A stretch of 64,000 nucleotides of DNA, taken from contig JAIPGM010000004.1 of NCBI GenBank assembly GCA_021735655.1, positions 64,001-128,000 of the forward strand. The letters are read 5' to 3'. This document shows, piece by piece, positions 211-64,000 of this stretch. The first letter of the stretch is position 1; each line of letters opens with the position of its first letter. This DNA is from Candidatus Omnitrophota bacterium. Its GTDB lineage: Bacteria > Omnitrophota > Gorgyraeia > Duberdicusellales > 4484-171. The position numbers and the translations under genes are program-made. Below the pieces are notes generated by a model, which worked only from the letters and a program-made list of their open reading frames with translations, was not told where the DNA came from and ran no database searches.

Positions 211-669
211 TTACTCTACTTCGGAAAAGCCAACAGGACAACTTGTTCCGATATGAATATTTGGGGCAGGAGTGTTTACAGAATTAGATCTACAAAGAAG
301 ACCGTCCTCGTCAATATAATAAGTTTTAGCTTGAGCTAAATTCTGCGGTGTGGCCGTAGCGTAGAAATCAATGTAAGTATTAGGAACCGCTTTAATAATA
401 TATTCCTGCTTTATGCCGCTAGCTAAAGAAACGTCAATATAGGGAGGCTGGGCAGAAGCTAACTCCTGTAAAGTTGCATATTCCGGGTTAGTTGCCCGCC
501 ACTGCACTTCAGCAGAACAAACAATGCGAAGAAGATTCGCCGAAATAGCTGCTCGGGCAGACATCCGCGAACGCAATAAATTAGGTATAGCCAAAGCTGC
601 CAAGACAGATATTATGGTTACAACTATCATAAGCTCCATGAGAGTTATGGCCTTTTTTAATTTTTCCAT
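211..669 (-). CDS. type IV pilin-like protein (prepilin-type N-terminal methylation domain), paralog of the pilin at 3328-3777
   Basis: N-terminus KAITLMELMIVVTIISVLAALAIPN is a class III signal / N-methylation motif. C-terminal YIDEDGLLCRSN...C region and Cys pair are shared with the second pilin. Confidence 0.8.
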   Translation of the reverse strand: MEKLKKAITLMELMIVVTIISVLAALAIPNLLRSRMSARAAISANLLRIVCSAEVQWRATNPEYATLQELASAQPPYIDVSLASGIKQEYIIKAVPNTYIDFYATATPQNLAQAKTYYIDEDGLLCRSNSVNTPAPNIHIGTSCPVGFSEVE

Positions 670-5192: not shown

Positions 5193-6914
5193 TCACTCCG
5201 AGATTACCCGAATAACTTCCTCTGCCGAAGTTACCCCTTCGCTACATTTTAAAAAACCATCTTCGGCCAAAGATTGGTAACCCTTAAATTCTCGAGCGTA
5301 CTGGATAATCGTTTCCTCAGTTGCTAATTCAATAATCATCTCTCTTATTTTATCATCTAAAAGAATAATTTCCAGTATTGCTACTCTACCTCTATAACCG
5401 CTGTGAGCGCAGTGAGGACAGCCCTTGGCTCGATAAATCTTTTTTGGCTCGTTGTTCCCCATTATTTTACTACTTAATCCAAACCCCAAACGCTTCAATA
5501 AATCCTTATCCGGGATATATCCTTCCTTACATTTAGGACAAAGCTTACGCACTAAACGCTGAGCAGTAAGGGCAACTAACGATGAAGCTAACAGGAATGG
5601 CTCTGTACCCATATCGCGCAGACGAGCTATTGCTCCCACTGCGCTATTGGTATGAAGAGTAGAAAGTATGGTCTCGCCGGTTAAAGAAGCTTTAATCGCT
5701 GTGTCGGCAGTCTCAGCATCTCTGATTTCACCAACCATAATTACATCCGGTGATTGACGCAAAACCGACCGTAAACCAGCAGAAAAAGTTAAGCCGATTT
5801 CAGCATTAACTTGAATTTGAGTTATACCTTCTAAATGATACTCAACCGGCTCTTCAATAGTTATAATATTTTTATCAGTCGAGTTAATCTGATTAATGAT
5901 TGAATAAAGAGTTGTTGATTTACCGCTTCCAGTTGGCCCAGTAACTAACATTATTCCAAAGGGAGCTTTGATTGCCTCTTCAAACAAAGCCAGCGGCCCG
6001 GGCGAAAACCCTAGTTTTTTTAACCCTATCGATAAGCTCTCTCTATCGAGCACCCGGAGAACAAACTTCTCGCCAAAGTGGGTAGGTAAACTAGAAACTC
6101 TAAAATCTATTTCCCGAGACTCAAATTTAACCCGAAATCTACCGTCTTGAGGAAGCCGCGACTCAGTAATGTCTAGAGATGAAATGATCTTCAAGCGAGC
6201 AATTACGGCTTGCTGGCTGGTTTTAGGAAAACTAAACTCATCGGCCAAGGATCCATCTACTCGATAACGAATTAATAATTTATCTTCACAAGGCTCAATA
6301 TGGATATCTGATGCCCGCTTCTTTAAGGCATTATAAATAATAACATCAATTGCTCTCACGACCGGAGGATGCTTGCTTTCTGAAATTGAACTCTCTAGAT
6401 CTTGTTTAGACTCTTGATGCAACAATCCTTCGCCAACCGAATCAAGAGATACATCGCTACTAAGGGTTTCGGAAATATGTTCAGCCGACTTGTATAAAAA
6501 ATTTATGGCTCTACTTATATCCTTCTCACGAGAAAGAACCAAATCAACCTTTTCGGCATTGGTAATAATCTTTATGTCGTCATGAGTAATAACATCTAAA
6601 GGATTGGCTGTGGCCAAAGTCAGAACATTGCCGATCTTGCATAAAGGAAGAACCTTATGCTTAATTGCTATATCTTTAGGTAATAGCTCTTGATTCTTGT
6701 AAGGTAGTTTATATTTTTTTAAATCAAGAAAAGGGATCTTAAGTTCTTTGGAAAACATCAATAAGAGCTCTTCTTCGCTGATAAGCCCGCTCTCAATCAA
6801 AAGGCTCCTTAAATCAGCATAGGTACGAGCTCGTTTGGCAATATCGATAAGGACCTTCTTGTCACATTTTTTGTCCTCTTGAATGTACTTTATTATCTTC
6901 TCTTTTATGGTCAT
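5193..6914 (-). CDS. pilB: type IV pilus assembly ATPase (GspE/PilB family) with N-terminal GSPII_E_N/MshEN-like domain
   Basis: Walker A GPTGSGKST, Walker B DVIMVGEIRD, His box STLHTNSA, tetracysteine CPKC...CPHC; 573 aa. Confidence 0.9.
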   Translation of the reverse strand: MTIKEKIIKYIQEDKKCDKKVLIDIAKRARTYADLRSLLIESGLISEEELLLMFSKELKIPFLDLKKYKLPYKNQELLPKDIAIKHKVLPLCKIGNVLTLATANPLDVITHDDIKIITNAEKVDLVLSREKDISRAINFLYKSAEHISETLSSDVSLDSVGEGLLHQESKQDLESSISESKHPPVVRAIDVIIYNALKKRASDIHIEPCEDKLLIRYRVDGSLADEFSFPKTSQQAVIARLKIISSLDITESRLPQDGRFRVKFESREIDFRVSSLPTHFGEKFVLRVLDRESLSIGLKKLGFSPGPLALFEEAIKAPFGIMLVTGPTGSGKSTTLYSIINQINSTDKNIITIEEPVEYHLEGITQIQVNAEIGLTFSAGLRSVLRQSPDVIMVGEIRDAETADTAIKASLTGETILSTLHTNSAVGAIARLRDMGTEPFLLASSLVALTAQRLVRKLCPKCKEGYIPDKDLLKRLGFGLSSKIMGNNEPKKIYRAKGCPHCAHSGYRGRVAILEIILLDDKIREMIIELATEETIIQYAREFKGYQSLAEDGFLKCSEGVTSAEEVIRVISE

Positions 6915-19378: not shown

Positions 19379-19421
19379 TATTTATCCTTTTTAGCCACCA
19401 GCATTTAAGGAAGGAAGACAA

Positions 19422-19495
19422 TGGCGGCGAGTGGACTTGAACCACCGACAAAACGGGTATGAGCCGTTTGCTCTACCAGCCTGAGCTACGCCGCC
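19422..19495 (-). tRNA. tRNA-Met (anticodon CAU; elongator-type G1-C72), 74 nt, no encoded CCA
   Basis: Reverse complement folds as a cloverleaf: GGCGGCGTAGCTCAGGCTGGTAGAGCAAACGGCTCATACCCGTTTTGTCGGTGGTTCAAGTCCACTCGCCGCCA. CAU could also be the tRNA-Ile2 lysidine species. Confidence 0.85.
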
Positions 19496-19530
19496 AACGG
19501 GGAAAAATTATACCACATCTTTGAAAAAAA

Positions 19531-49449: not shown

Positions 49450-50307
49450 CTACCTTTTACCGATAACCCGCCTATACCTACCACGTTTTGGGTTTATCAT
49501 AAGCTGACGAAAAGCCTCAGCTCGCTGATTTTCCCTCCACTTTTGTTCTTCAGCTTGTTGTTTCTCTTTTTCTCGTTGCTCATCCATGTGAGATAGAATA
49601 TCTTGAGCTAAAAGCAAACGTGAATTATTTAAGGCACATTCTACAAAGTCTTTTCGACTAAGGCTGGCAACTACAGCCCATCCGCCCATATCTCCCGGAA
49701 AAAGACACCAAAGAAAAGATCGCCTTTCATCTGCCTGATCGACAGGGGGAATACCTTGAAAATCAAAATAAACTGGTACTGAGCTTTCAAGCCACCTTTT
49801 AGGAAAACATTCTTCTGGGAAATAGGTAAAATATATGCCTTTCCAAATTGAAGATCCAAAGTCTTTATGCCCTGACCCGGCATGGAAATCATTAGACCCT
49901 TTACAAAAACGTCGGTAGTCCATCGACAATCGTGTACCGTTAACAAGCCACACCATATTTTTATAAAAATTTTCACGACTCTTTATCTCATCAGAGTCGA
50001 TTGCCGAATGCTGAAATTCTATTACAAGCCCACTGATCGTTTTTACATCTGCAATATGTTTTTCTTCATTCATAGAATCAAAGTGCCCAAGCTCCTGCCA
50101 TTCTTTCGGAAAATGTTTCTTCCATTCTCTGTGCCACTCCGCTTCATTCTCCCACCATGGATCACACAACGATTTTCGCTTATGCTTCCAATGCCAAACT
50201 TTTTCTGCCCCACAATAAGCGATCATATCGCTTTGGCAATGCACACACGAACCTCGTAACCCCGGCTGAGCTTCCGTCTTATCTCCGCCAACCAGAGCAA
50301 ATCTCAT
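49450..50307 (-). CDS. competence protein CoiA-like family nuclease-related protein
   Basis: N-terminus MRFALVGGDK...CVHCQSDMIAYCGAEKVWHWKH matches the CoiA N-terminal zinc-ribbon-like region. Confidence 0.55.
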   Translation of the reverse strand: MRFALVGGDKTEAQPGLRGSCVHCQSDMIAYCGAEKVWHWKHKRKSLCDPWWENEAEWHREWKKHFPKEWQELGHFDSMNEEKHIADVKTISGLVIEFQHSAIDSDEIKSRENFYKNMVWLVNGTRLSMDYRRFCKGSNDFHAGSGHKDFGSSIWKGIYFTYFPEECFPKRWLESSVPVYFDFQGIPPVDQADERRSFLWCLFPGDMGGWAVVASLSRKDFVECALNNSRLLLAQDILSHMDEQREKEKQQAEEQKWRENQRAEAFRQLMINPKRGRYRRVIGKR

Positions 50308-50552
50308 ATTTTATTCCTTTTTTTTTCGGTGTTATTAGTGCAAGCCCATACTAAAGCGACAATCCACGCAATTCCCCCAGTAAAAACCATAAACAGGTTT
50401 AAGATAAATATGGCTAAAGCATTATTATGCTTCCTCTTTCTAGCAACAACAGTCGGCAAGAAATAAAAACCGATGGCAACGATACCGCCAATAATTCCCA
50501 AAACAATCCATGCTACAGGGGCTTGATCCCACCAAGCAATAAAATCGCCCAT
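50304..50552 (-). CDS. superinfection immunity (Imm-like) small membrane protein
   Basis: YFLPTVVARKRKHNNALAIFILNLFMVFTGGIAWIVALVWA matches the pfam14373 pattern. Confidence 0.6.
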   Translation of the reverse strand: MGDFIAWWDQAPVAWIVLGIIGGIVAIGFYFLPTVVARKRKHNNALAIFILNLFMVFTGGIAWIVALVWACTNNTEKKRNKI

Positions 50553-50583
50553 TCATTACTCCTAGAGAAAATCTCTTAAACTT

Positions 50584-50829
50584 TTACTTTTGTTCCTCAT
50601 TTTCAAGAACATAACCTTGACCATAATCTATTATCTCTACCCATTGTTTACCTTTGTTTATGTTTAAATCCCAGACTCTGCCGGTTATGGTGTCACATTT
50701 CATCCACATCATTCCACCCAACTGACCACTTCCTTGATAAGTTGTGACTTGATATCTACCATTCAGTGCAAACAAAAAGGCTGATACTGCCAAAGAAATA
50801 CACAGAATCATTATTCCAAAATTCTTCAT
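50584..50829 (-). CDS. small secreted hypothetical protein
   Basis: Signal peptide, 81 aa. Confidence 0.4.
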   Translation of the reverse strand: MKNFGIMILCISLAVSAFLFALNGRYQVTTYQGSGQLGGMMWMKCDTITGRVWDLNINKGKQWVEIIDYGQGYVLENEEQK

Positions 50830-50870
50830 ATATCCTCCTGAGTCATTTAAACACTACCGTTTTGTAATCT

Positions 50871-51266
50871 CTATTCTTCCTCATTTACAAAAATCGCCGT
50901 TCCTTTAACAACCTTGGCATTTACAGGCGCAACCCATATTGCACCACTCCCATAACCACCGGCCATAGTAGATGTCTGAGTTCCCGTATTTGTTAATAAC
51001 ACACCGTTTGCGCCGATTTTTGCCGCTTGTTTTTTAAGCTCCGCAACTGCATAATCTTGTGAGTCTTGATCCGTCCATCCCGAATCACTTGATGCTTCAA
51101 CAACCCCAAGCACATCATATTTCTTTGGTTCCTCTAAATAAAGCTTTACTGATTGTGGATCCGTAGATGGCCGGGCAGTTCCAGTAAGGATAACACTACC
51201 CGTTGCACAGCCTATGAGAAACGAAGCTACTAGGCAACAAACAATAATTTTGGAATATTGTTTCAT
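50871..51266 (-). CDS. lipoprotein, hypothetical
   Basis: Lipobox LIGC after signal peptide. Confidence 0.45.
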   Translation of the reverse strand: MKQYSKIIVCCLVASFLIGCATGSVILTGTARPSTDPQSVKLYLEEPKKYDVLGVVEASSDSGWTDQDSQDYAVAELKKQAAKIGANGVLLTNTGTQTSTMAGGYGSGAIWVAPVNAKVVKGTAIFVNEEE

Positions 51267-52027
51267 CTTTTTGCCCCCTCTATTTTTTCTTTATCAGAAA
51301 ATATGGAAATAACAGAAGCTTTGTTGTTGTCACCGCCAAACCATATCCAAAACACATTGTCATCTGAAGTCATCATCGCACCGGTATATTTAGAGAACAT
51401 ATTTTTAGGGTTTGCTTCCTTAAAAGCATCCAAAAATTCGGGATAAAAAATCTCATCAAATTTTACCAAAAATTCATCTCTATTTTTAATTTCGCCGAGA
51501 TCTGTGTTTAATGGGTAATAAACCATGTTGGAGACTTTTTCTTTGTCTCGATTTAGGACTGATCTTTTGAAATCTTGGGCAAAATTATCCACCATTTCAT
51601 CATCGTCCATTCCGCCAATAGCATACATGGAATTCAAATCGCCTGCACTGCCATAATCCATTTTAAGCCTTATATGCCCAGTTGCTTCCGCAGAACTTAT
51701 GTCTCCCGCAATAACTTCACGATTCAGCTTGGAATCTCCATAAGCGTCATCTTGATCTTGAAAAGACGCATTGATCACTATGCCATCCTCATTTTTTAAA
51801 GTAATTTTTCTGCCATCAAGAGTTCCGGAAAGCGGAATGCTCATATAATCCGAATCAAAATATAACTCACCAATTACATTCTCCTGATCATATACAAGAG
51901 TTAATCCACCAGTTTGACCTGCAATGTCGCCCCTGTATGTCCAGTGCCAATCTTTGGTGAATGAATCACAATGCCCCTCTGCGCCAGTGAACAACAGACA
52001 AAAAACAAATATAAGCAATGCCCGCAT
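51263..52027 (-). CDS. secreted hypothetical protein
   Basis: Signal peptide; 254 aa; 4-nt overlap with downstream gene. Confidence 0.4.
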   Translation of the reverse strand: MRALLIFVFCLLFTGAEGHCDSFTKDWHWTYRGDIAGQTGGLTLVYDQENVIGELYFDSDYMSIPLSGTLDGRKITLKNEDGIVINASFQDQDDAYGDSKLNREVIAGDISSAEATGHIRLKMDYGSAGDLNSMYAIGGMDDDEMVDNFAQDFKRSVLNRDKEKVSNMVYYPLNTDLGEIKNRDEFLVKFDEIFYPEFLDAFKEANPKNMFSKYTGAMMTSDDNVFWIWFGGDNNKASVISIFSDKEKIEGAKR

Positions 52028-52029
52028 TC

Positions 52030-53340
52030 CTAGACCTCTTTTTCCTTTAAGAAATCAAGTACGGGCTTGAATTTCTTTATTGTACTGATGATTTCGCCCT
52101 CTAACTCTACTGATTCTGTAAGCACCTTAGTTCCTCTGTCAATAGAATACCTAAAGTGTATACCGGGAGCCCCCGGCTCTTTATCCGCTTTTTTCAAAAC
52201 ATCACAAATATATTGAACGTCTTTTTGCGTATTAATATCACTCAACTTCATTTCAAAGAATTTAACCCATTTTTCATTGCCGGGCATTATGCGTTTCCCT
52301 GTTCTCGGCAAACGTTTTGAAACTACCAGCCTCGATTCCTTTCTGGCACCGCTTATAACCTGAAGGAATTTATTTGTATTTGTAGATATCCGATTAAAAA
52401 ATATGCCGATAGGGGTCTTACTCTGAGATGTCCGACCGTTGCGGACAACAGTGTTGATATCCAAACAACTCTTTGAAACCTCAATAGTAAAATTACATTG
52501 GTTAAAAACGTCCTTGCCATCCTTTGGTCTTTTAATTGCGACCCAAGCAAACCTCTCATCCTTGCCACTTCTCGATATGTTCCCGGGCTTAATAAATGAA
52601 TATTCAGAACCGATTTCTTTCGGCAGTTTTTCTTTTATGATATTTGCCAGAGCTTTAAGTTTTTTCCTGAGAATAGGGACGTAATACGGATTGGGGTCAA
52701 TCCAAAAATCAAAATCCGAGTCTTTGAATCCATTAAATTCGGTCATTACGACTACCTCCATGTAATCAATAAACTGCTCAATTAATTGTGCAACCGCAGA
52801 TAGCGATTTATTTCCTTTTATTTTCTCAACTGTGCGACGGCATATTTTATGAACCTTCGACCAGCTAAGGTATCTAACACGGTTATCGCTAATGCTATTT
52901 AAACTGCTTTTGTCATCTAAATTGTTCGTTATAACAACAAGGACATCTTTAGCACCTATATCGCTCAAATGCCGTCTAATTTGATCAAGATCCAATCTTG
53001 CCCGAACTTTCGATTCAATATGGATATTGTAATCTGCCAAATCGATCAAAGCATCAGGTCTGCTACCGCTTAATCCTTTCTGCAGTTTAAAAGAAACCAC
53101 CGGGCGATTTGGTGCCTCGATTGCTTTTAAGAATCCAGACAAAAGGTCGACAAAACCTGCCTGACAGCAAAATTCGAATATATTGACCAGCCCTTTGGTA
53201 GTGTTATCCTCAACTTGGAAATCATACAAGGATTCTTTATCTCGCTTAGAAGGCCCCCGGTAATAAAAAAATATGTTCTGATGAGGATCTCTCACGCTTT
53301 TCTCCCATATTCGGTCTTTAAAAATTTGCCATAAGCCCAC
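52030..53340 (-). CDS. PD-(D/E)XK nuclease-fold protein with unknown C-terminal domain (candidate defence effector)
   Basis: RPDALIDLADYNIHIESK is a PD...D...ExK arrangement near the N-terminal third; 436 aa. Confidence 0.45.
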   Translation of the reverse strand: MGLWQIFKDRIWEKSVRDPHQNIFFYYRGPSKRDKESLYDFQVEDNTTKGLVNIFEFCCQAGFVDLLSGFLKAIEAPNRPVVSFKLQKGLSGSRPDALIDLADYNIHIESKVRARLDLDQIRRHLSDIGAKDVLVVITNNLDDKSSLNSISDNRVRYLSWSKVHKICRRTVEKIKGNKSLSAVAQLIEQFIDYMEVVVMTEFNGFKDSDFDFWIDPNPYYVPILRKKLKALANIIKEKLPKEIGSEYSFIKPGNISRSGKDERFAWVAIKRPKDGKDVFNQCNFTIEVSKSCLDINTVVRNGRTSQSKTPIGIFFNRISTNTNKFLQVISGARKESRLVVSKRLPRTGKRIMPGNEKWVKFFEMKLSDINTQKDVQYICDVLKKADKEPGAPGIHFRYSIDRGTKVLTESVELEGEIISTIKKFKPVLDFLKEKEV

Positions 53341-53885
53341 AGGGCTTCATCAAGCCGCTTCCATGCAACCCCTTTTTTGCATAGCTCATTAAAAAATGGG
53401 GCATACTCCGCAAAATATATTTGTTCTTTTTGCTTGTTGCTATTTGGAATTTCATTGCGTCGGTTTTGACTCAAAAAGATAAAAGCCCTATAAACATGCT
53501 GATCAAATATCGGGAAATCATTCGGCGTGATTATGTGTAAAAGATATATTTTCCAGATAGCTCCGTTTACAAAACTGAAATCTTTTAAGAAAGAATCGAG
53601 GGAAAAAAAGTCCTTAAGGTTATTGATGACATTCAGCTTGGCTTTAATATTCGATAGCACTACTTCTTTTTTCTGGGATAGTTTACTCCCATTTTTCCAA
53701 ATAAATAATTTATCAATATCATCGATGCTGAATTTTTTCTTTCCGATAATAGGGACGTAATAATCTTCCATAGGATAGTTATAAAAACTGCTCCAGAATT
53801 TAACAAACTCATCTATTGTGACATTTTTTGTGTTTAAAACCGGGAAATTCATTATTGCTCCGTTAAATTTTCCCCACTTGGACAA
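53292..53885 (-). CDS. hypothetical protein, probably co-transcribed with the PD-(D/E)XK gene
   Basis: 197-aa ORF overlapping the downstream gene by 49 nt; no recognised motif. Confidence 0.35.
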   Translation of the reverse strand: MSKWGKFNGAIMNFPVLNTKNVTIDEFVKFWSSFYNYPMEDYYVPIIGKKKFSIDDIDKLFIWKNGSKLSQKKEVVLSNIKAKLNVINNLKDFFSLDSFLKDFSFVNGAIWKIYLLHIITPNDFPIFDQHVYRAFIFLSQNRRNEIPNSNKQKEQIYFAEYAPFFNELCKKGVAWKRLDEALWAYGKFLKTEYGRKA

Positions 53886-53932: not shown

Positions 53933-54430
53933 TTACTCATTCTTCTCCTTTTTTCCGTTCTTTATTACCTTTTCTAATGCGTGGATAACTTTATCGACTT
54001 GAATGTTTATATCACGCTTTATTAGATGCTCCCATAAACGGACCACAATCCACCCTTTTCTTTTTAAAAATAGAGTGGTTTTTTTGTCTCGCAATCGATT
54101 CTTTTCTATTTTTGTTTTCCAAAAATCATTCTTTAATAAATGCTTCCAGCGAGAATACTGCCAACCATGCCAAAAATCGCTATCTAAGAAAACACACAGT
54201 TTAGCTCTTTTAAAAACGATATCTGGCTTCCCTTTTATAAGTTGCACATTTCTCTCAAATGTTTTCCTTGTTCGTTTTTTTAATGCGCGAATGAAATCTT
54301 CCTCAAATTTTGTGTCTCGAGACCGTATTTTTGACATTACAACAGAACGGTGTTCTTTTGTGATTTTGTCTGATTCTCGTTTTTTCTTAAAATTGCGACC
54401 TAAATAGTTTTTGATTCTTCTCTTTGTCAT
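53933..54430 (-). CDS. vsr: very-short-patch-repair endonuclease (Vsr)
   Basis: TKEHRSVVMSKIRSRDTKFE...GKPDIVF...VFLDSDFWHGW...NDFWKTKIEKNRLRD...GWIVVRLWEH matches the Vsr signature throughout. Confidence 0.85.
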   Translation of the reverse strand: MTKRRIKNYLGRNFKKKRESDKITKEHRSVVMSKIRSRDTKFEEDFIRALKKRTRKTFERNVQLIKGKPDIVFKRAKLCVFLDSDFWHGWQYSRWKHLLKNDFWKTKIEKNRLRDKKTTLFLKRKGWIVVRLWEHLIKRDINIQVDKVIHALEKVIKNGKKEKNE

Positions 54431-54433
54431 AGC

Positions 54434-55609
54434 CTAATAAGACAATCCATATTTCTTCATTGCTTCTTTTAGTAATGGCGGTGATTTCCGTTCACCAAAA
54501 GCGTCCCCTAAAAGATGTACTATAAATTTCTCAGTTTTAGGTAAAATAACACTTGAATGCTGAACGACTAAACTCACCCATTTATCAACCAGTTCTTTTG
54601 TTCTTATATATTCCTTTAATTCCCAATAGTGCCTGACCTCGTCAACCGTGAGTTTTGAAACAATTTCAATAATTTCTTTAGCGTTTCTTTGGAGGTAATA
54701 AAATATCTTTGGAATCTTATGGTACGCCACGTCATTAATAACAATTGTCTGTTGTCCTCCAGCGGTAAATCTATCTCTAAGCGAAGAATCCACCACACCA
54801 TGACGAGCCGCTAACCAAGTCGCGAAATTTTGATATTTTGTTTGACTCCTACCAAATATCTCAGGGAATCTTGCCATAGCTTCATTTCTAAAGCGATTCT
54901 GTTTATCTTCATGAAGATTGCCCCACAAAGTAACTGTGGGACTTAGCATGGCGTCAACTTCATCCCCGGGATCCATCCACCAAGGTTCTTCTCCTTTTTT
55001 AGAAATTTTGCGAAAATAACGAACAACTTCCTTAATCGGATTATCTTGTTTCCGCAAAATGTTATATTCCGTTCCCATCTTATCAAATATGGTTTTCCCA
55101 GAATCAAGCTCCATATCTATCAAATATCTCGGGGAATGGGTTACAGCGATGTCGTAAAGACATTCTTCATATCTTCGAAACTTAAACTTTGGTGGAGCGA
55201 CCAGTCTTCCAAAAAATAGATATATTCTTTCAACGCCTTCAACTCTTGTTGTTTCAAGGACACTATTGCCAGTACTACGCCAATGATCTTGTTTGGTAAT
55301 TTTTACTTCCACTCCGTAATATCGTTTCGCCACTATATCTGGAAATTTATGCCCTGATATAAGTTGTATCGTTCCTTCAAATTCAGTTTTTTTCGATGAA
55401 ATCAACATAGAACCGTAGACTTCTTTTTCAAAATCTGATGAAGATAATCCGCAATAGCGCTTTGGAGCTTTTGACGCTTCATCTTGAATGGTTTTAATCC
55501 CACCGTTCAATAAAGTCTCAAAAGAATTCTCACTCGCTTCTGTCCTTTTAGATATAATCATTTTAATCCTTTCTTGAAAATCTTTGGCCATAGCTCCTGT
55601 AGACGCCAC
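54434..55609 (-). CDS. putative type II restriction endonuclease (inferred from position between C5-MTase and Vsr)
   Basis: No motif recognised. The M-R-Vsr gene order is known from HpaII-type systems. 52-nt overlap with the MTase suggests a later start. Confidence 0.35.
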   Translation of the reverse strand: MASTGAMAKDFQERIKMIISKRTEASENSFETLLNGGIKTIQDEASKAPKRYCGLSSSDFEKEVYGSMLISSKKTEFEGTIQLISGHKFPDIVAKRYYGVEVKITKQDHWRSTGNSVLETTRVEGVERIYLFFGRLVAPPKFKFRRYEECLYDIAVTHSPRYLIDMELDSGKTIFDKMGTEYNILRKQDNPIKEVVRYFRKISKKGEEPWWMDPGDEVDAMLSPTVTLWGNLHEDKQNRFRNEAMARFPEIFGRSQTKYQNFATWLAARHGVVDSSLRDRFTAGGQQTIVINDVAYHKIPKIFYYLQRNAKEIIEIVSKLTVDEVRHYWELKEYIRTKELVDKWVSLVVQHSSVILPKTEKFIVHLLGDAFGERKSPPLLKEAMKKYGLSY

Positions 55610-56847
55610 GCCACATTAAAAGCTAATAATGGTGGCACAGCGTTGCCAATCACTCTGTAACCATCTGATGGGCTCAAAGCAAACTCCGATCCTAAAACCG
55701 AAGCGCTTCTCGTAAAAGCGAAATCATCGGGAAAGGTTTGAATTCTGGCGCATTCTCGAACTGTCAACCGTCGCTCTTTTAGCCCCATATCAATTTCTTT
55801 AAGATTTTTTCCGCCATGCTCTTTCGACAAACGTCTAAATTCTATATTCCCATGATGTTCAGCTCGAATCGTTGGCCCTAATCCCATCACATTAACTTCA
55901 CTTTGTCCTTGGCAATGTTTTCCATACCACTTAGCTCTTGAATAAGCTTTTTGAGAGGGGTCATTCGAGAATTCCGGTTCTTTCAGTCCAACAAAAGCGT
56001 CTTTAACTTTTACAAAGGGCAATAAGTGTGAATCTTCACTAATTTCACCATGCGTTCTTGGGGGATATGGGTTAAAGCACGAATCATCACTCAATAAGGT
56101 TAATTGTTCAATAGCTTTTCTAGTCAGAGCATCCCTTCTAAAACCGATAAAAACTACCCTCTCTCTAGTCTGGGGGGCACCATAATCCTGCGCTCTTAAT
56201 ACTTTAGCGTTAACAACCAAATAACCATTATCTCCAATAGATCCAAAATCATTTTCGATAATCTTCTTAGCGTCGGATAAAGATACTAGCCCCTTGACAT
56301 TTTCGGCAAGAAATACTTTTGGCCGGACAATTTCAATAACAGCTCTCATCCACATGTAAAGCTTCCCCCGATTTTCTTCTGATGGTTCCTTGCCGTTTAA
56401 CAATCCTCCATGATGTGCCTTGTGAGAATTAAAACCTTTGCGTTTTCCCGCCACGCTAAAATCTTGACACGGGAAACCACCAGTAACCAAATCAACTCTC
56501 GGAAAGACTCTCGCCGCTCCTGAAGAATGCTTCCTAACTAAATCAACAATACTTTCAGAATGAAAAAGCGATCCATTTTTTCCTTCTTTATCAAAATAAG
56601 GAACCCAACCAGCTTTAGCCGATTGTAAAATATCATTGGCAAAAACTGTTTTAAACACTGTTTTTGGCAATCGAACCCAATGCTTATTTATAGGATTTTT
56701 TAACCAATCTGGATGAATTATTGGATTAATGGATTTTTTAAGAACGATGAAATCACCTTCAAAACCTAAATCCATACCACCGCAACCAGAGAACAATGAA
56801 AGTACTTTCAACGTTTGTGTCTTTTTTTTCATTTTTAGTCCTATCAA
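55558..56847 (-). CDS. DNA (cytosine-5)-methyltransferase
   Basis: Motif I LSLFSGCGGMDLGF, motif IV GGFPCQDFSVAG, motif VI FLAENVKGL, plus variable region and C-terminal motifs. Confidence 0.9.
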   Translation of the reverse strand: MIGLKMKKKTQTLKVLSLFSGCGGMDLGFEGDFIVLKKSINPIIHPDWLKNPINKHWVRLPKTVFKTVFANDILQSAKAGWVPYFDKEGKNGSLFHSESIVDLVRKHSSGAARVFPRVDLVTGGFPCQDFSVAGKRKGFNSHKAHHGGLLNGKEPSEENRGKLYMWMRAVIEIVRPKVFLAENVKGLVSLSDAKKIIENDFGSIGDNGYLVVNAKVLRAQDYGAPQTRERVVFIGFRRDALTRKAIEQLTLLSDDSCFNPYPPRTHGEISEDSHLLPFVKVKDAFVGLKEPEFSNDPSQKAYSRAKWYGKHCQGQSEVNVMGLGPTIRAEHHGNIEFRRLSKEHGGKNLKEIDMGLKERRLTVRECARIQTFPDDFAFTRSASVLGSEFALSPSDGYRVIGNAVPPLLAFNVAWRLQELWPKIFKKGLK

Positions 56848-57566
56848 TTTTCCATAAACCCTTCATCAGCAAAGCTGAAGAAAGAATTATCACCAATTAT
56901 TACATGATCCAAAAAGTCAATTTTTATAGACTTGCTCACATTTAGAATATCCTTTGTTAAATTTCGATCGTCAATACTTGGATCACAATTCCCAGAAGGA
57001 TGATTGTGAGCGCAAATAAATGAACTAGAGCAACACTCTAGAGCCTTATGAAATATTTCCCTAACAATAGGATTAACTTCATCGACTGTTCCTTTTCCAA
57101 GCTCAACGATATTTATCAATCGACTCTTGGTGTCAAGATAAAGAACCTTAAATTCTTCTTTCTTTAAATCACGCATGCGAGGCGATAATAAGGTAAACAC
57201 ATCTTTGGCATTTTCAATCCTAATTTTTTTGGGAATGATTTTCCCTTCATGGAATCTTTTGCCAATTTCTATCGATGCTCGTATTTGAGCTATCTTAGCG
57301 ACACCAAGACCTTTAAACTCTTTCCAATCCAAATCCCCAGCCTGACTTAATTCCCGGAAAGAACCAAACTTTTTAATTACAGAACGAGCTAAATCCAAAG
57401 CGCTCTGTCCTCGTATCCCAATACGAAGAATAATTGCTAATAATTCGGCATCGCTTAAAGATTCTTCTCCTTTTTTTAAAAGCTTCTCTCTCGGTCGGTC
57501 ATCCACCGGCCAAGCGCTTATTCCTGATGGTTTTCTAGTCTTTGTTTTTCCCAATTTTATACCCAA
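56844..57566 (-). CDS. RadC-like JAB/MPN domain protein
   Basis: RPREKLLKKGEESLSDAELLAIILRIG, HNHPSG, DPSIDDRNLTKDI...IDFLDHVII. Start codon uncertain (TTG/GTG; no early ATG). Confidence 0.85.
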   Translation of the reverse strand: MGIKLGKTKTRKPSGISAWPVDDRPREKLLKKGEESLSDAELLAIILRIGIRGQSALDLARSVIKKFGSFRELSQAGDLDWKEFKGLGVAKIAQIRASIEIGKRFHEGKIIPKKIRIENAKDVFTLLSPRMRDLKKEEFKVLYLDTKSRLINIVELGKGTVDEVNPIVREIFHKALECCSSSFICAHNHPSGNCDPSIDDRNLTKDILNVSKSIKIDFLDHVIIGDNSFFSFADEGFMEN

Positions 57567-57856: not shown

Positions 57857-58957
57857 TTAAACTATCCTTTTCTTGCTTCTTTTTTTTGAAGGTTTTTTAC
57901 TGATTTGCGATTCCACCAAAAAACGCTCACGTTTTAACTCTTTGACAAGCTCGTCTTCCGTTGGCAAATATAACTTATACCTCGAGGCAAATATCTGTTT
58001 GTTATCTTTAGGCAACGTGTACCTGACAACAGCGTCTTTTTTATCTTCGCACAAAATAAGTCCAACTGTTGGATTGTCATCTTTCTGTTTCATGGATCGG
58101 TCGTAATAGTTTACATACATCTGCATTTGTCCGATATCCTGATGAACTAGTTTCCCAATTTTTAAATCGATAAGGACAAAGCATTTCAAGATAGTATTGT
58201 AAAAAACCAGATCAACATAAAAATGATCGCCATCCAATGTAATGCGTTTCTGTCTGCCTACAAATGTAAATCCTTTTCCAAGCTCAAGCAAAAACCTGGA
58301 AAGGTTATCAATAAGCGCCTGTTCCAGCTTGCTCTCGTATAATTTTGAGTGAGGAGATAATCCGGTAAATTCTAAAACATAAGGATCTTTTATCATATCT
58401 TCATATGTTGCCAGCTCTTGTCCTTTGCGAGCCAGCCTCATAAGACCTTTTTTGTCTTTGCTTAAAGCAAGCCGCTCATAAAGAAGTGTTCCTTTTTGTC
58501 GTTCAAGTTCGCGAGCTGACCAATTATTAGCGACGCACTCCGCCTCATAAAAGGATCTTGCATCAGGCTTGTCGACTCGCATCAATATTCGATAATGCGT
58601 CCAGCTCAATTCTTGACGCACTGCGTCAAGAATTGGATATGCTAAATAAAACTTTCGCATATTCGTCAAATTCGTAAAATCAAAGCCCTTGCCAAATTCA
58701 TCTGAAAGTCGATGGGACAAATCTTCTATTGTTTTCTTTCCATATCCTGCGCGCTTCTTGCCTTTCTGTTCTTCTTCGACAATTTCTTTTCCGATATGCC
58801 AATAGGCTAAAACCATCTCCGTATTAACAGCGCGGGCGATATTGTTTCTTGCGTTCTCAATAATTGCGCAGATTCGTTCGTACGCATTTGTTTTATTATT
58901 AACTCTCTTTTTGGCGATACTTCGAGAGCTTTTTTGAATGGCTTTTTTTCGTGGCAT
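57857..58957 (-). CDS. YhcG/DUF1016-family PD-(D/E)XK nuclease
   Basis: C-terminal FVGRQKRITLDGDHFYVDLVFYNTILKCFVLIDLKIGKLVHQDIGQMQMYVNYY is the DUF1016 core. Confidence 0.75.
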   Translation of the reverse strand: MPRKKAIQKSSRSIAKKRVNNKTNAYERICAIIENARNNIARAVNTEMVLAYWHIGKEIVEEEQKGKKRAGYGKKTIEDLSHRLSDEFGKGFDFTNLTNMRKFYLAYPILDAVRQELSWTHYRILMRVDKPDARSFYEAECVANNWSARELERQKGTLLYERLALSKDKKGLMRLARKGQELATYEDMIKDPYVLEFTGLSPHSKLYESKLEQALIDNLSRFLLELGKGFTFVGRQKRITLDGDHFYVDLVFYNTILKCFVLIDLKIGKLVHQDIGQMQMYVNYYDRSMKQKDDNPTVGLILCEDKKDAVVRYTLPKDNKQIFASRYKLYLPTEDELVKELKRERFLVESQISKKPSKKRSKKRIV

Positions 58958-60024: not shown

Positions 60025-60699
60025 TTAATCAATAACCGCTTCCTTTTTTTCCACAGGTTGAGGTCGATATCTTTTCATGATCTGGCGAATTTCTTTCTCA
60101 AGATCAAAGTTTGAAACCCAGTTGCTTTTACTTCTGATTTCTTCCTCAACATCAGCCACAGTAGGACGGTTTAACCCAGCGATAACCCTGTCTTTTTCAG
60201 CATGAAATACATCATACGCCTCAGTGCCTAAGCTCGGGCTAAATGCCGGATATGATTCCAGATCACGCTTTGTCACCGCAGGGTGTCCATGTAAAGCAAA
60301 AGCCAATCCAAAAAGTTTTCCTTTTGCTTTCCAGAGATCAAGTTTTGCCTTATCACGGTCACGATTAAGGCGTTTTCTGATCTCTATAACTTTCTGAGAT
60401 TCATCATCTTTCAAAGTGGTGAAAGCATCCTCAAGTTTTTCTTTTAGCTTCTCAAGGCTTTCGGACACCACGTCGAGATTGATATTGCATTCCTCCAAAG
60501 CTGAATCCGCTTCTTTTACAGCATTTGGATTAGCTTTTTCACCGCACATAATCCTGCTTCTGATTTCTTTTGCTTTTTCTTTAGCGTCTTGTTTTTCTTT
60601 TTCACATTGCTTCTGCTTCTCCTCAAGAGCTACGATCTGCTCGGCGATCTCATCTGGCGTGCTTTTGTCTTTTAACACATTTAAAAAATTAAGCTTCAT
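60025..60699 (-). CDS. hypothetical coiled-coil protein
   Basis: 224-aa ORF; charged heptad-like N-terminal half. Confidence 0.4.
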   Translation of the reverse strand: MKLNFLNVLKDKSTPDEIAEQIVALEEKQKQCEKEKQDAKEKAKEIRSRIMCGEKANPNAVKEADSALEECNINLDVVSESLEKLKEKLEDAFTTLKDDESQKVIEIRKRLNRDRDKAKLDLWKAKGKLFGLAFALHGHPAVTKRDLESYPAFSPSLGTEAYDVFHAEKDRVIAGLNRPTVADVEEEIRSKSNWVSNFDLEKEIRQIMKRYRPQPVEKKEAVID

Positions 60700-60703
60700 T
60701 GTC

Positions 60704-61117
60704 TTATCTCCTTTTTTTAGGTGCGGTTATTGATAATGCTTCTTCAAACGGACAATCCGTTTCGTTCTGATACTTTCGAGCACGCCAAACATGATCAAGC
60801 TGTTCTGCGATTACCACACTGCCTGAATCTGCTTCTTTTTCCGGTGCGGTCTTACTTAAAGCGTCAGTTAACGTGCATTCAAATTTCTCACGGTACTCAT
60901 ACGCTTTCTTTAAGTGGTCAAGACGGACATCGCCTTCACTCGCCATGCTATCGTTCTTCTTAGCAGTCGCCTGCAAGGCTTCTGTGAGTGAACAGTTGTG
61001 CCTCATCATATAAAGATTAGCGTCAATTAAATGAACGAGTTGTTTTTCTTCAGTTGACCCCGGAACATACCGGCTGTTCATCCCGCTTATTGTGTTTAAT
61101 AAATGAGCTTGTTTCAT
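60704..61117 (-). CDS. hypothetical protein
   Basis: 137 aa; GGAGG SD 8 nt upstream; 4-nt spacer to the downstream gene. Confidence 0.4.
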   Translation of the reverse strand: MKQAHLLNTISGMNSRYVPGSTEEKQLVHLIDANLYMMRHNCSLTEALQATAKKNDSMASEGDVRLDHLKKAYEYREKFECTLTDALSKTAPEKEADSGSVVIAEQLDHVWRARKYQNETDCPFEEALSITAPKKRR

Positions 61118-61210
61118 TTTTTATTCCTCCTGTTTTTTTGTTTATCCACACTAAAAATATCCTTAATTTTCAATCCATAATTACATCATTTTCACCCCCT
61201 TTTCTGATGA

Positions 61211-61510
61211 TCGTGAGCGTTGTGAACGTCGATTCCACTACTTTCTAAATCCCTCTTTACGCCTCTTTTACACCCCTTTTTTGTGACTTTCCTGACCCTT
61301 TCCCTTATATTTTTCTTTTTTTAGAACAGAGGGGTTTTTACGTTCACAATGTTCACAAACCACACAAATCCTTGTAGATTAAGAAGTTAACCACTGAGCG
61401 TAGGTGTGACCGTAGACTCTGGACGTTCACAACGTTCACACTTTTCAGTACGGTCTCGGGTCCTCACGGTCACAACGCTCACCGACGTTCACACCGACGC
61501 TCACACCATT
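61211..61510. repeat. iteron field: about 11 copies of CG(T/C)TCACA(A) in direct and inverted orientation (P4 type-I-iteron-like), putative replication origin
   Basis: Copies: gtgagcgttgtgaacgtc (61215-61232); cgttcacaatgttcacaa (61341-61358); gacgttcacaacgttcacac (61423-61442); cggtcacaacgctcaccgacgttcacaccgacgctcacac (61467-61506). Confidence 0.65.
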
Positions 61511-63808
61511 TTCAAAGAGCGAATTGCCCTTAGTTTTCCGTAAAATAAACAGCTTCCTGCCGGTACCGGCTTCACGTTTATTACTACGTAAAATATCAAT
61601 CCCCACACTCCTCATAACAGGTGCGATACGCATAAGTTCAGAAGCTAAAGCCCTAGCATTAGCGGGAATTGTTTTATCAAATCCTGTCTCAGGCTGAACA
61701 CTTGAAAGAAGCGTAGTCGCAGAACCTGCCCATTCACCACCGTTAAATTCCACAAGATAAGTAAGCCTCTGTGCAAGCGTGCTTTCTTCGGCAGTATCTT
61801 CCCATTTATGATCAACCGACTCCTGATACTTCTGTAAAAACTCATCCTGTGAAAAGCCTAAATATCCCGACAAGCCTGAACCCCATTTAGCGAAATCCGA
61901 CATCCTGAAACGTTCATGCCCTGATACTCCGTCAACAATAGCCATAGCTTTTGAAAGGGCGGTAAAGAATCCGCCGAGAATGCCCGGCAAAGAAGCCCTC
62001 CACTCATCAGCGATTTGTTTTTCAGGTCTTGTTTCTTTGAGAATAGGAATATCGAATATTATTGATCTATCTAAAAGGTCGGGTCGGCAGATGGAACTGC
62101 CTATGCCGTTTAAAACAAAACATCTGCGGTACGTCCTTATAAATTCTTCGTCATTAGTGTAGAGTGACCGTTTCATGTCGCCTTCACCGGTTACCGCACG
62201 ACATAAAAAATCACTGAACCATTCAGATACACGAGAGAGATTGTCGAAGTTATTCACCCAATGCTTATCAGCGATCATCTGAGCCTGTTCTAAGTCTTTG
62301 GGAGCCGAAATTGACATTACTTTTGACGGATCACATAAACTTTTTATTAATCGGGAATTATTTGACTTACCAGTGCCTTGCTCGCCGAGTTGGACAGGTA
62401 TAACATGGGGAATATCAGGAATGAAAAACGTAGCTATAACCGTCATAAAAAGGCAGGCGTCATCTTTATTAATATTACAGAAGTCTAAAAGTTTTATCGG
62501 ATCAAATCCTTTAACAGGCATGACCTGCTCAGACTGGTGAGGGTAACGCTTAAATATCGGCGGGAGAAAAACAATTTCCCAGCCGTCTTTTGTAATCACA
62601 ACTCCACGCCAGTCTTTAGTCGTAAGGTCGTAATAAATCGCTCCGTTATACCAGCCTACACGGTTATACAGCTCAATCTGCCGACCGCCTTCGCATTGTG
62701 CCTCAACCTGAATACGTGCCTGTTTTAACGCCTCATTGCCCGGAGGATGACCGAAATCCCTGCGGTACCGCATTGCAAAACAGTTCCTGAAACGTGAACT
62801 GCTCGTCTGGCATACTTCAAAGTGTTTATCATAAGGAAGGACAACATAAGGATTGCCCTGCTGATCGGAAAAATATTCCGTGATCATTTCTTCACAGTCC
62901 CGGGTTATTATCTCGCCTTGAGTAAGCTTCTTTTGCTTAGGAGTGTTTGAAGCAGTAAATTCGTCCTTAGTATCCTGAATCGCTTTATCAATTGCCGATT
63001 CTCCGTATGTCTTGCCATCGCTAAAATGCTTCTCATCCCACTTTGATCGCATAAGACCAGAGTGACGGAACAAAGAATCCATCCCCACAGAATCTTTGCC
63101 AGTCCAAAAGGCGAGTTTATTGCATAAAGCAAGATCCGCTTCTGATTGGGAAGGATAATCATCCTGCCATCTGCCTTCATATAATTTAAAGAAACTATCT
63201 GCGTCTTTGCTTTTCCTGATCCTGTTAAGGAGAGATTTTACTTTCTTATTCTCCGCGTCCAGATTTTCAAGATGTTCATACAAGGCTTTGAGCTTGTCGG
63301 AACATTCGACAATCTTGTCATTACAGCCCTTAACAATGTCTCCGGTCGTAATAAGAAATCTATTCCCTGAATACATCTCCACATTAAACGAGCTGAACTT
63401 GCGGTCTCTGGGAAGCGTGCCTTTGCAGATAGTGTGAAGTCCTGTTCCGCTGACTGAATATTCTGTGTAACTGTTAAGCTCGGATATTATTTTTTGGACG
63501 AAAGGCGTAATAATTCCGTCTTTAATACAGTTATCAAAATCTATTCCCGCATGTGGCGATCTAAGGGCAAAACCGATAGCATCAAATTTCAAGATTTCAG
63601 CTTTGGATAAAACCACATCCAACGCACACCATGTCTTTGGATTATTTGATTGGGCATGTCCGCCGGTAAGCGCATTGATAGGTTCTTTCCGTGGCTTTTT
63701 ACCTTTTTGAGGAACAAACCGGAAGCCCACCCATATAGGCAAGTCTTTCATTTCCTGCGGTATATTTTCCACATACCATTTCTTCTCTTTTCTTCTCTCT
63801 TTCTTCAT
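61445..63808 (-). CDS. replicative primase: N-terminal bifunctional prim-pol domain + P4-family primase C-terminal P-loop (D5/SF3-like) domain
   Basis: Prim-pol region IWVGFRFVPQKGKKPRKEP...DAIGFAL. Walker A GEQGTGKSN. The last ~20 codons (GVSVGVNVGERCDRE...) are translated from the iteron repeats. Confidence 0.75.
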   Translation of the reverse strand: MKKERRKEKKWYVENIPQEMKDLPIWVGFRFVPQKGKKPRKEPINALTGGHAQSNNPKTWCALDVVLSKAEILKFDAIGFALRSPHAGIDFDNCIKDGIITPFVQKIISELNSYTEYSVSGTGLHTICKGTLPRDRKFSSFNVEMYSGNRFLITTGDIVKGCNDKIVECSDKLKALYEHLENLDAENKKVKSLLNRIRKSKDADSFFKLYEGRWQDDYPSQSEADLALCNKLAFWTGKDSVGMDSLFRHSGLMRSKWDEKHFSDGKTYGESAIDKAIQDTKDEFTASNTPKQKKLTQGEIITRDCEEMITEYFSDQQGNPYVVLPYDKHFEVCQTSSSRFRNCFAMRYRRDFGHPPGNEALKQARIQVEAQCEGGRQIELYNRVGWYNGAIYYDLTTKDWRGVVITKDGWEIVFLPPIFKRYPHQSEQVMPVKGFDPIKLLDFCNINKDDACLFMTVIATFFIPDIPHVIPVQLGEQGTGKSNNSRLIKSLCDPSKVMSISAPKDLEQAQMIADKHWVNNFDNLSRVSEWFSDFLCRAVTGEGDMKRSLYTNDEEFIRTYRRCFVLNGIGSSICRPDLLDRSIIFDIPILKETRPEKQIADEWRASLPGILGGFFTALSKAMAIVDGVSGHERFRMSDFAKWGSGLSGYLGFSQDEFLQKYQESVDHKWEDTAEESTLAQRLTYLVEFNGGEWAGSATTLLSSVQPETGFDKTIPANARALASELMRIAPVMRSVGIDILRSNKREAGTGRKLFILRKTKGNSLFENGVSVGVNVGERCDREDPRPY

Positions 63809-63810
63809 TG

Positions 63811-63972
63811 TTATGCTCCGTTCTGAAATATGAAGTCTTTAACCTTCCTGTAACATTGAAATAACTGCTCCTCTTTGGAGTTATTGAAAAACTTATCCGC
63901 CAGCTTGCGTGTTTTCTCGGCATCATCGAAAAGGATTCGTTTCTGCCTGCCAACTCCCGATAAACCCTTCAT
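63811..63972 (-). CDS. possible small ORF (53 aa) translationally coupled to the primase
   Basis: ATG at 63970-63972. MKGLSGVGRQKRILFDDAEKTRKLADKFFNNSKEEQLFQCYRKVKDFIFQNGA. TAA ends 2 nt before the primase ATG. Confidence 0.3.
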   Translation of the reverse strand: MKGLSGVGRQKRILFDDAEKTRKLADKFFNNSKEEQLFQCYRKVKDFIFQNGA

Positions 63973-64000
63973 GTCGCACCCCTTTGATACGAGGTACGTG

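Follow-up and report, generated by a model that had tools for sequence, protein, structure and literature searches.

The gene of a predicted primase-helicase runs at its 3' end into a dense field of short repeats, and the question raised by this locus is what such a field does at that position. Both lie near the end of a 64,000-nucleotide stretch of DNA from a Candidatus Omnitrophota bacterium, which was analysed as a whole and is called here the window. The answer that we consider probable, drawn from comparisons of sequence and layout, is that the field (61212-61505) serves a small integrative island as its vegetative origin, of the iteron type. Besides the primase-helicase and the candidate origin, this island most likely carries genes for a large serine recombinase and for DUF5659 and HTH_17 proteins, together with variable defence cargo.

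The repeat is a 9-bp unit with the consensus ACGTTCACA, and its copies are concentrated in the field. The string CGYTCACA occurs exactly nine times in the 64 kb, against 1.4 +/- 1.1 times in shuffled sequences, none of which reached nine, and six of the nine matches fall in 61221-61505. Five of the window's six perfect copies of ACGTTCACA are inside the field. Allowing one mismatch raises the window total to 12, of which nine are in the field and three in the remaining 63.7 kb, where the density is 0.015 per 311 bp. With up to two mismatches allowed, the field holds 12 copies, among them a probably spurious one at 61418-61426. Mapping gave 11 credible copies and two degenerate ones, in agreement with the original prediction of about 11. 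The credible iterons are located on the minus strand at 61212-61220, 61221-61229 and 61405-61413, on the plus strand outside the gene at 61340-61348, 61349-61357, 61423-61431 and 61432-61440, and on the plus strand inside the gene at 61466-61474, 61475-61483, 61485-61493 and 61497-61505, while the degenerate ones are at 61358-61366 (plus) and 61393-61401 (minus). Spacing is mostly as pairs 9 bp or 12 bp apart, and the mapped positions bear out the head-to-tail pairs that had been described; the single inverted copy of that description has to be corrected to three or four.

These copies form a series of blocks, for which invariance was read from an alignment of 12 loci and conservation was expressed as the mean majority fraction over eight diverse loci. 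The four in-gene iterons (ACGGTCACA, ACGCTCACC, ACGTTCACA and ACGCTCACA; 61466-61505, plus strand) lie within the last 20 codons of the gene, which read NGVSVGVNVGERCDREDPRPY up to the stop, so that the predicted overlap between the repeats and the 3' end of the primase gene is real. Read in the orientation of the gene, pair A, two perfect head-to-tail iterons ACGTTCACAACGTTCACA (61423-61440, plus strand; conservation 0.73), follows the stop codon after a gap of 4 nt. Pair B (61393-61413, minus strand; 0.70) comprises an inverted ACGGTCACA and the degenerate ACGCTCAGT, 12 bp apart. Set C (61340-61366, plus strand; 0.78) is one arm of the conserved core and consists of ACGTTCACA, ATGTTCACA and the degenerate AACCACACA in 9-bp phase, with TTGTGAACATTGTGAACGT (gene strand) nearly invariant across the 12 aligned loci. 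The other arm is pair D (61212-61229, minus strand), the inverted iterons ACGTTCACA and ACGCTCACG, which with a conservation of 0.92 is the best-conserved intergenic block; within it, GTTCACAACG and TCA do not vary among the 12 aligned loci.

Between the two arms lies a spacer of 110 bp (61230-61339), which measures 87-110 bp in relatives. Its conservation is 0.57, yet its length range and the A-richness of the gene strand are kept, with 60-73% AT and 57-74% purine on that strand across loci. The strong feature of the spacer is this strand asymmetry: in the window it is 74% pyrimidine on the plus strand, which places it in the top 0.16% of window positions, whereas its overall AT content is 63% against about 61% for the genome. 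A core of about 25 bp (about 61300-61325) reaches 77% AT, with a local stability minimum at 61300, and this segment, ttcccttatatttttctttttttag, is the candidate unwinding element. An AT stretch of low stability at 61140-61180, outside the iteron-flanked spacer, is at least as unstable. As single-stranded DNA, sets C and D can pair (z = -2.8); a cruciform was considered and set aside, this pairing being a trivial consequence of inverted iterons. An Rfam search of 60600-61800 returned a chance-level lncRNA match only, and scanning for promoters and terminators gave nothing above shuffled sequences and no sigma-70-like promoter on the gene strand. Comparison of the DNA of the field and of 48-64 kb with phages, plasmids and E. 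coli genomes found no similarity.

The gene that meets the field (61445-63808, minus strand) encodes a putative primase-helicase initiator of 787 residues with more than 1,000 relatives. Residues 1-315 form an AEP PrimPol with the NrS-1 helix-bundle domain (Pfam PF22763, 96.3 bits against a cut-off of 27.9, E 9.3e-28); PHROG primase families also match this N-terminal third, and the PDB matches for it include SaPI5 PriRep5 (7OLA, 4.6e-28) and the NrS-1 primase chains (6A9W/6K9A, about 7e-27). For the other 490 residues, no Pfam or NCBIfam model gave a match. An AlphaFold2 model built with 46 homologues (pLDDT 87, pTM 0.82) presents a D5-like SF3 helicase fold at residues 296-654, with the Walker A motif GEQGTGKS, a winged-helix-like domain at 677-758 and a tail predicted to be disordered at 761-787 (pLDDT below 50). 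The fold matches of the model are ASFV PrimPol, the C-terminal region of NrS-1, poxvirus D5/E5 and SaPI5 PriRep5, and the predicted fold would place the C-terminal half in the D5-like SF3 helicase class. This helicase and winged-helix half (residues 296-787; 61448-62923, minus strand) also stands alone, in proteins of 480-530 residues, and is found fused to at least three types of primase: NrS-1-like AEP, Prim-Pol, and Prim-Pol with a DnaG-type zinc ribbon.

The in-gene iterons encode the VS/VN-rich part of the disordered tail. Valine codons there are GTG in 17 of 28 cases (pooled 32-residue tails), against 25% GTG in the gene bodies. The tail ends in a mostly acidic segment closed by an aromatic residue (61448-61480, minus strand, in the window): the endings read in the window protein and in those of L005, L019, L021, L010 and L027 are EDPRPY, DDTRPY, SDPRPF, ERQF and TELF. 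SSB and T7 gp4 have acidic, aromatic-ended C-terminal tails which dock partner proteins, and here, too, the tail may serve a purpose independent of the iterons that encode it.

The field had been put forward as a strong origin candidate, and absence or divergence of the repeats in close homologues was what we looked for; in the homologous loci read, the repeats are instead present, reduced in some cases, and the proposal stands. Where the protein is 57-92% identical, in metagenome-assembled genomes (MAGs) labelled Omnitrophota (including Velamenicoccus archaeovorus), Planctomycetia and Thermodesulfovibrionia, the same unit is found at the same position. Three or four in-gene copies are present in all homologues except L009 (59% identity), whose reduced field has none of them but keeps set C, the spacer and pair D. 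Because these three elements are the ones retained at L009, we regard them as the conserved core, and the opposed sets C and D around a spacer of 87-110 bp recur in 12 of 12 aligned loci. In two more distant homologues the layout is kept just after the stop codon while the repeat units have changed. At L022 (42% identity), a locus of high G+C with a T7-like RNA polymerase and a tyrosine integrase nearby, copies of GTGACG/ACGTCACA are arranged around a pyrimidine-rich spacer; at L023 (33% identity), an AT-rich spacer separates three ATGACAG copies from three inverted ones. The L023 field (5830-6030) is also bracketed by an inverted repeat containing G8/C8, ccacaggggggggg ... cccccccctgtgg. At L024 (31% identity) there is no field after the gene. 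The module is not described in the Dehalococcoides IME1 preprint or in the Omnitrophota complete-genome preprint.

Natural domain swaps among these loci point, at the level of sequence, to the part of the protein with which the field travels. At L010 the helicase and winged-helix half occurs without a primase domain and GTTCACA is kept. At L027 the same C-terminal half follows an N-terminus of Prim-Pol and zinc ribbon, the gene upstream encodes a cold-shock-domain protein in place of DUF5659, and the field is kept. At L026 an N-terminus of the same NrS-1-like type, with a DUF5659 neighbour, is joined to a C-terminus recognised by Pfam as D5_N/DUF5906/Pox_D5, and the repeats are ATGACA. The field thus appears to go with the helicase and winged-helix half. 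In each island read there is one cluster, always at the primase-helicase gene: no second GTTCAC cluster was found in L016, L019, L021 and others within 6-10 kb on each side of the gene, and L005 has one further weak grouping of three GTTCAC hits.

The genomic setting is that of an inserted element. The first 49 kb of the window are ordinary chromosome, with polysaccharide and glycosylation genes, a GGDEF protein, an ABC exporter and a tRNA-Met. In this chromosomal part, outside the island, the tRNA-Met is at 19421-19496 and an STT3/PglB-type oligosaccharyltransferase gene (657-3203) lies within a long run of polysaccharide genes. Island-like DNA extends from about 49.4 kb to the window end, and the island continues beyond base 64000. 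Five genes at 49450-53885 have no family match above threshold. They are followed by a type II restriction-modification cargo made of a REase_II (54434-55609) and a Dcm methylase (55558-56847), with a Vsr repair nuclease (53933-54430), and RadC (56844-57566) and YhcG (57857-58957) adjoin this set; the island also encodes an HTH_11 gene and an HTH_17 gene. The first gene downstream of the field (60704-61117, minus strand) encodes 137 residues with no family match. It starts at 61117 after a leader (61118-61211, minus strand) carrying an AGGAGG ribosome-binding site at 61128-61133, and no terminator was found between it and the primase gene. On the other side, a DUF5659 gene (76 residues), of which the 3' part is present (63811-64000, minus strand) before the window end cuts it, stops 3 bp before the primase start. 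This part is 100% identical to L025:2534-2764, on a 5.5-kb contig with an identical primase, where a divergent large serine recombinase of 547 residues (Pfam Resolvase, Recombinase and Zn_ribbon_recom) is found beyond DUF5659. The L025 assembly breaks 338 bp after the primase stop.

In relatives, the island core is mostly a serine recombinase, a small upstream gene and the primase-helicase, to which some islands add an HTH_17 gene or an S24-type repressor, and the cargo varies (type I restriction-modification, KAP NTPase, DpnI, TIR, Abi_2). The neighbours of one relative, greA-like and miaB-like, suggest an island of about 10.5 kb. Since close relatives carry a different downstream gene, the conserved module seems to end at the candidate origin, which would thus border the conserved replication module on one side and variable cargo on the other. 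At L001 (12690 onward), the origin region is near base-for-base the same up to the ribosome-binding site, and a different gene comes after it. The carrier MAGs are labelled Candidatus Omnitrophota (including Velamenicoccus archaeovorus LiM), Planctomycetia, Thermodesulfovibrionia, Victivallaceae and Dehalococcoidales. IMG/VR classes as viral a 52.8-kb contig (L148, IMGVR_UViG_3300014206_004182) that encodes a 90%-identical primase, and the Dehalococcoidales relative (L027:7174-8670) has a terminase-like gene nearby; some carriers of the module may be phages or phage satellites and not plain islands.

The closest known system is the Pri-Rep of the SaPI/PICI islands with its ori, in particular SaPI5 PriRep5 (PDB 7OLA). 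In SaPIs, 6-12 iterons lie immediately downstream of rep around an AT-rich centre, with at least two iterons per side pointing in opposite directions, and they are bound by a winged helix in the C-terminal domain of the self-loading SF3 helicase Rep (PMC9371898). The locus described here has an SF3 helicase with a winged helix near the C-terminus of the protein, iterons that begin at 61505, within the final 20 codons of the initiator ORF, and continue immediately 3' of it as far as 61212, in a number (11 credible copies) inside the SaPI range, with opposed sets of two or more copies on the two sides of a central spacer and, as host element, a small integrative island. The SaPI5 helicase is moreover fused to a primase homologous to that of the window protein (E 4.6e-28), and the helicase half superposes on 7ola_C with a TM of 0.51/0.57. 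It is because the layout fits the SaPI rule and the SaPI5 helicase carries a homologous primase that we favour an origin. The differences concern the unit, of 5-6 bp in SaPIs and 9 bp (ACGTTCACA) in the window; the four copies which, unlike in SaPIs, run into coding sequence; the spacer, A-rich and strand-asymmetric here (63% AT overall) but strongly AT-rich in SaPIs; the large serine recombinase carried by the islands read; and the hosts, which are here uncultivated Omnitrophota-like bacteria. Sequence similarity between the helicase half and that of SaPI5 is undetectable, the PDB match stopping at residue 287.

From this parallel, we infer a scenario of binding, melting, loading and episomal replication. 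The island would excise first. The winged-helix domain near the C-terminus of the primase-helicase would bind the ACGTTCACA iterons, and the A-rich spacer bracketed by the opposed set C (61340-61366) and pair D (61212-61229) would melt. The SF3 helicase could then load itself as a hexamer at the melted spacer, and the AEP PrimPol of the same polypeptide would prime, and perhaps extend, DNA synthesis. Pairs A and B and the in-gene iterons, which are additional to the core, may raise occupancy or affinity, or serve copy control.

Other replicons resemble the locus in part. The NrS-1 phage primase-polymerase-helicase has the AEP and the helix-bundle domain in common with the window protein (PF22763; PDB 6A9W/6K9A) and a helicase region of similar fold (6K9C/6K9E, E 3e-9), with sequence similarity confined to the N-terminal third of the window protein. 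In phage lambda, the ori iterons are inside the coding sequence of the initiator O itself, in a part that codes for a flexible segment; unlike the window protein, O is neither helicase nor primase and recruits the host DnaB through P, and the whole origin is internal to the O gene, unlike in the window. ORF904 of plasmid pRN1 combines, like the window protein, a Prim/pol domain, an SF3 helicase and a C-terminal winged helix, and an essential non-coding region is present downstream of its gene (PMC2777425). It differs in its Pfam domains (Prim-Pol, D5_N and Pox_D5), in belonging to an archaeal plasmid and in having no defined iterons.

The original prediction had gone further towards another replicon, phage P4, and had attributed a P4-family C-terminal domain to the protein. 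This part does not hold: TIGR01613, D5_N, DUF5906 and Pox_D5 all match P4 alpha, used as positive control (TIGR01613 at 108.7 bits, together with D5_N, DUF5906, Pox_D5, Zn_Ribbon_Prim and Toprim_3), whereas none of the P4-family models matches the window protein even at E up to 1 or 10. BLASTP between the two proteins gave E = 0.68, and hhalign of the family profile against P4 alpha aligned the Walker A/SF3 core only, weakly (probability 3.7%, E 0.011). The primases differ in type, a zinc ribbon with Toprim in P4 alpha and an AEP PrimPol in the window protein. With family models, BLASTP and primase type all failing, membership in the P4 family was rejected. The relation to P4 alpha, which likewise holds primase, SF3 helicase and winged helix in one polypeptide (PMC2777425), is one of broad fold class and domain order, not of family membership.

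The proposed comparison of the field with P4 ori/crr stands for the layout, the GTTCAC core and the 9-bp phasing, and fails for the protein family, the single cluster and the sense of the iterons. In the annotated P4 record, crr is directly 3' of alpha, as the window field is 3' of its gene. The type 1 repeats of crr (ctgttcacactgttcacc) stand head to tail in pairs with 9-bp phasing, further copies are inverted, and the spacer is rich in pyrimidines; the window field has the GTTCAC core and the phased pairs in common with it. The P4 type I iteron TGTTCACC has no exact copy in the field, the nearest being TGTTCACA at 61350-61357. P4 also has a second iteron region, ori, 4.5 kb from crr, plus type-2 repeats, whereas the window has one cluster, counted in an island that is cut at base 64000. 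Finally, the P4 plus strand reads GTTCAC-spacer-GTGAAC, and the window reads GTGAAC-spacer-GTTCAC on either strand, which is the opposite sense. The label P4-like is therefore a valid analogy but wrong as membership, and P4 is a functional analogue only.

The same unit was found beside quite different genes. Scanning viral contigs with the 15-mer of pair D returned mostly chance matches and four loci with true fields, in which three GTGAACGT copies in 9-bp phase, a spacer of 70-110 bp and three inverted copies lie at or over the 3' end of primase/helicase genes with other Pfam domain sets. These ACGTTCAC fields adjoin DUF7146 with Toprim_3 (L095:1300-1650 and L098:2300-2580), Toprim_2 (L064:2237-2615) and Prim-Pol with PriCT_2 followed by a DUF5906 helicase (L054:4920-5120), on contigs of widely different G+C. 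The winged-helix, SF3 and D5N-like HMMs of the window family matched neither P4 alpha nor the other GTTCAC-associated proteins, and pairwise BLAST of the C-termini aligned only peptides translated from iterons. At the two loci of high G+C, L095 (1265-4291, minus strand) and L098 (2274-5198, minus strand), the frame of the Toprim-type primase seems to span the entire field. Origin repeats would in that case code for about 115 residues at the C-terminus, and the overlap found in the window would have an extreme counterpart there.

Iteron class and initiator family do not correspond one-to-one, since initiators between which no similarity was detected share ACGTTCAC and ATGACA is common to L023, of the window protein's family, and L026, with its D5/P4-type C-terminus. 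This mismatch weakens the assignment of iteron binding to the winged helix without overturning it. Because ACGTTCAC also adjoins primase-helicases in which tblastn and the HMMs of the window family detected no similarity, a protein other than the primase-helicase may bind the field, and this counts against the reading proposed here. The weak AT-richness of the spacer, of which a stretch of about 25 bp alone is clearly easy to melt, the unstable DNA outside it and the lack of a field at L024 tell against it as well. A more speculative idea, which we put forward with more doubt than conviction, is that the 9-bp ACGTTCAC/GTTCAC iteron is an origin 'word' widely common to primase-SF3-helicase initiators with different domain sets. 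Its users may include the AEP family, the DUF7146 and Toprim_3 proteins, the Toprim_2 protein, the Prim-Pol and DUF5906 pair and P4 alpha. If this were true, an ancient recognition module too diverged for sequence comparison to detect, a repeated exchange of small units of recognition helix plus origin, or an unrecognised common binder would be implied, and the likeness to P4 would be a real kinship of the recognition system, not a coincidence.

A separate binder would also suit a regulatory role, in which the repeats are operators for another DNA-binding protein of the island (DUF5659, HTH_17 or S24/LexA-type) and control the downstream cargo operon. Pair D, the most conserved block, is indeed about 100 bp upstream of the next gene start, no terminator separates the genes, the islands encode HTH proteins and the occurrence of one unit beside initiators with no similarity detected could indicate such a binder. 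We nevertheless consider this role unlikely: 11-13 copies over 290 bp, partly in a coding tail, are unlike a typical operator, and the gene strand has no sigma-70-like promoter. L027 keeps its field although DUF5659 has given way to the cold-shock-domain gene, the downstream gene varies among loci that share the field, and the helicase and winged-helix module is its one constant neighbour. A very unlikely alternative, to our mind, would have the initiator bind the field as an element required in cis and comparable to P4 crr, with replication starting elsewhere in the island, past the window end. The position of P4 crr 3' of alpha, the GTTCAC core and the 9-bp phasing speak for it, as do the DNA of 61140-61180, at least as unstable and outside the iteron-flanked spacer, and the extension of the island past base 64000. 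Yet SaPI-type origins of such layout are complete origins (PMC9371898), the related islands lack a second GTTCAC cluster within 6-10 kb and the window protein is outside the P4 family.

Short-repeat arrays in both orientations also occur in partition sites, and a large serine recombinase gene is nearby, so that the repeats could be imagined to act in partition as a centromere-like site, in recombination as an accessory site for the recombinase, or in packaging. We hold these functions to be highly improbable. No ParA/ParB-type gene was seen in the islands read, and the att sites of serine recombinases are single imperfect palindromes, not arrays; the field moreover stays next to the initiator wherever the recombinase gene lies, upstream or downstream, and also where a tyrosine integrase takes its place.

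Read as a vegetative origin, the field would form with its primase-helicase a candidate origin-initiator pair for the mobile islands of a phylum that is uncultivated and has ultra-small cells, and whose islands have so far been described by their cargo and recombinases and not by a primase-helicase/origin module. The predicted minimal replicon (61.2-63.8 kb) could seed genetic tools, and the module is a marker for finding such islands and for detecting their episomal state in metagenomes. The analysis also flags a large helicase and winged-helix family, with more than 1,000 relatives, which no Pfam or NCBIfam model covers. Finally, it raises the general question of why one iteron word recurs across initiator architectures.
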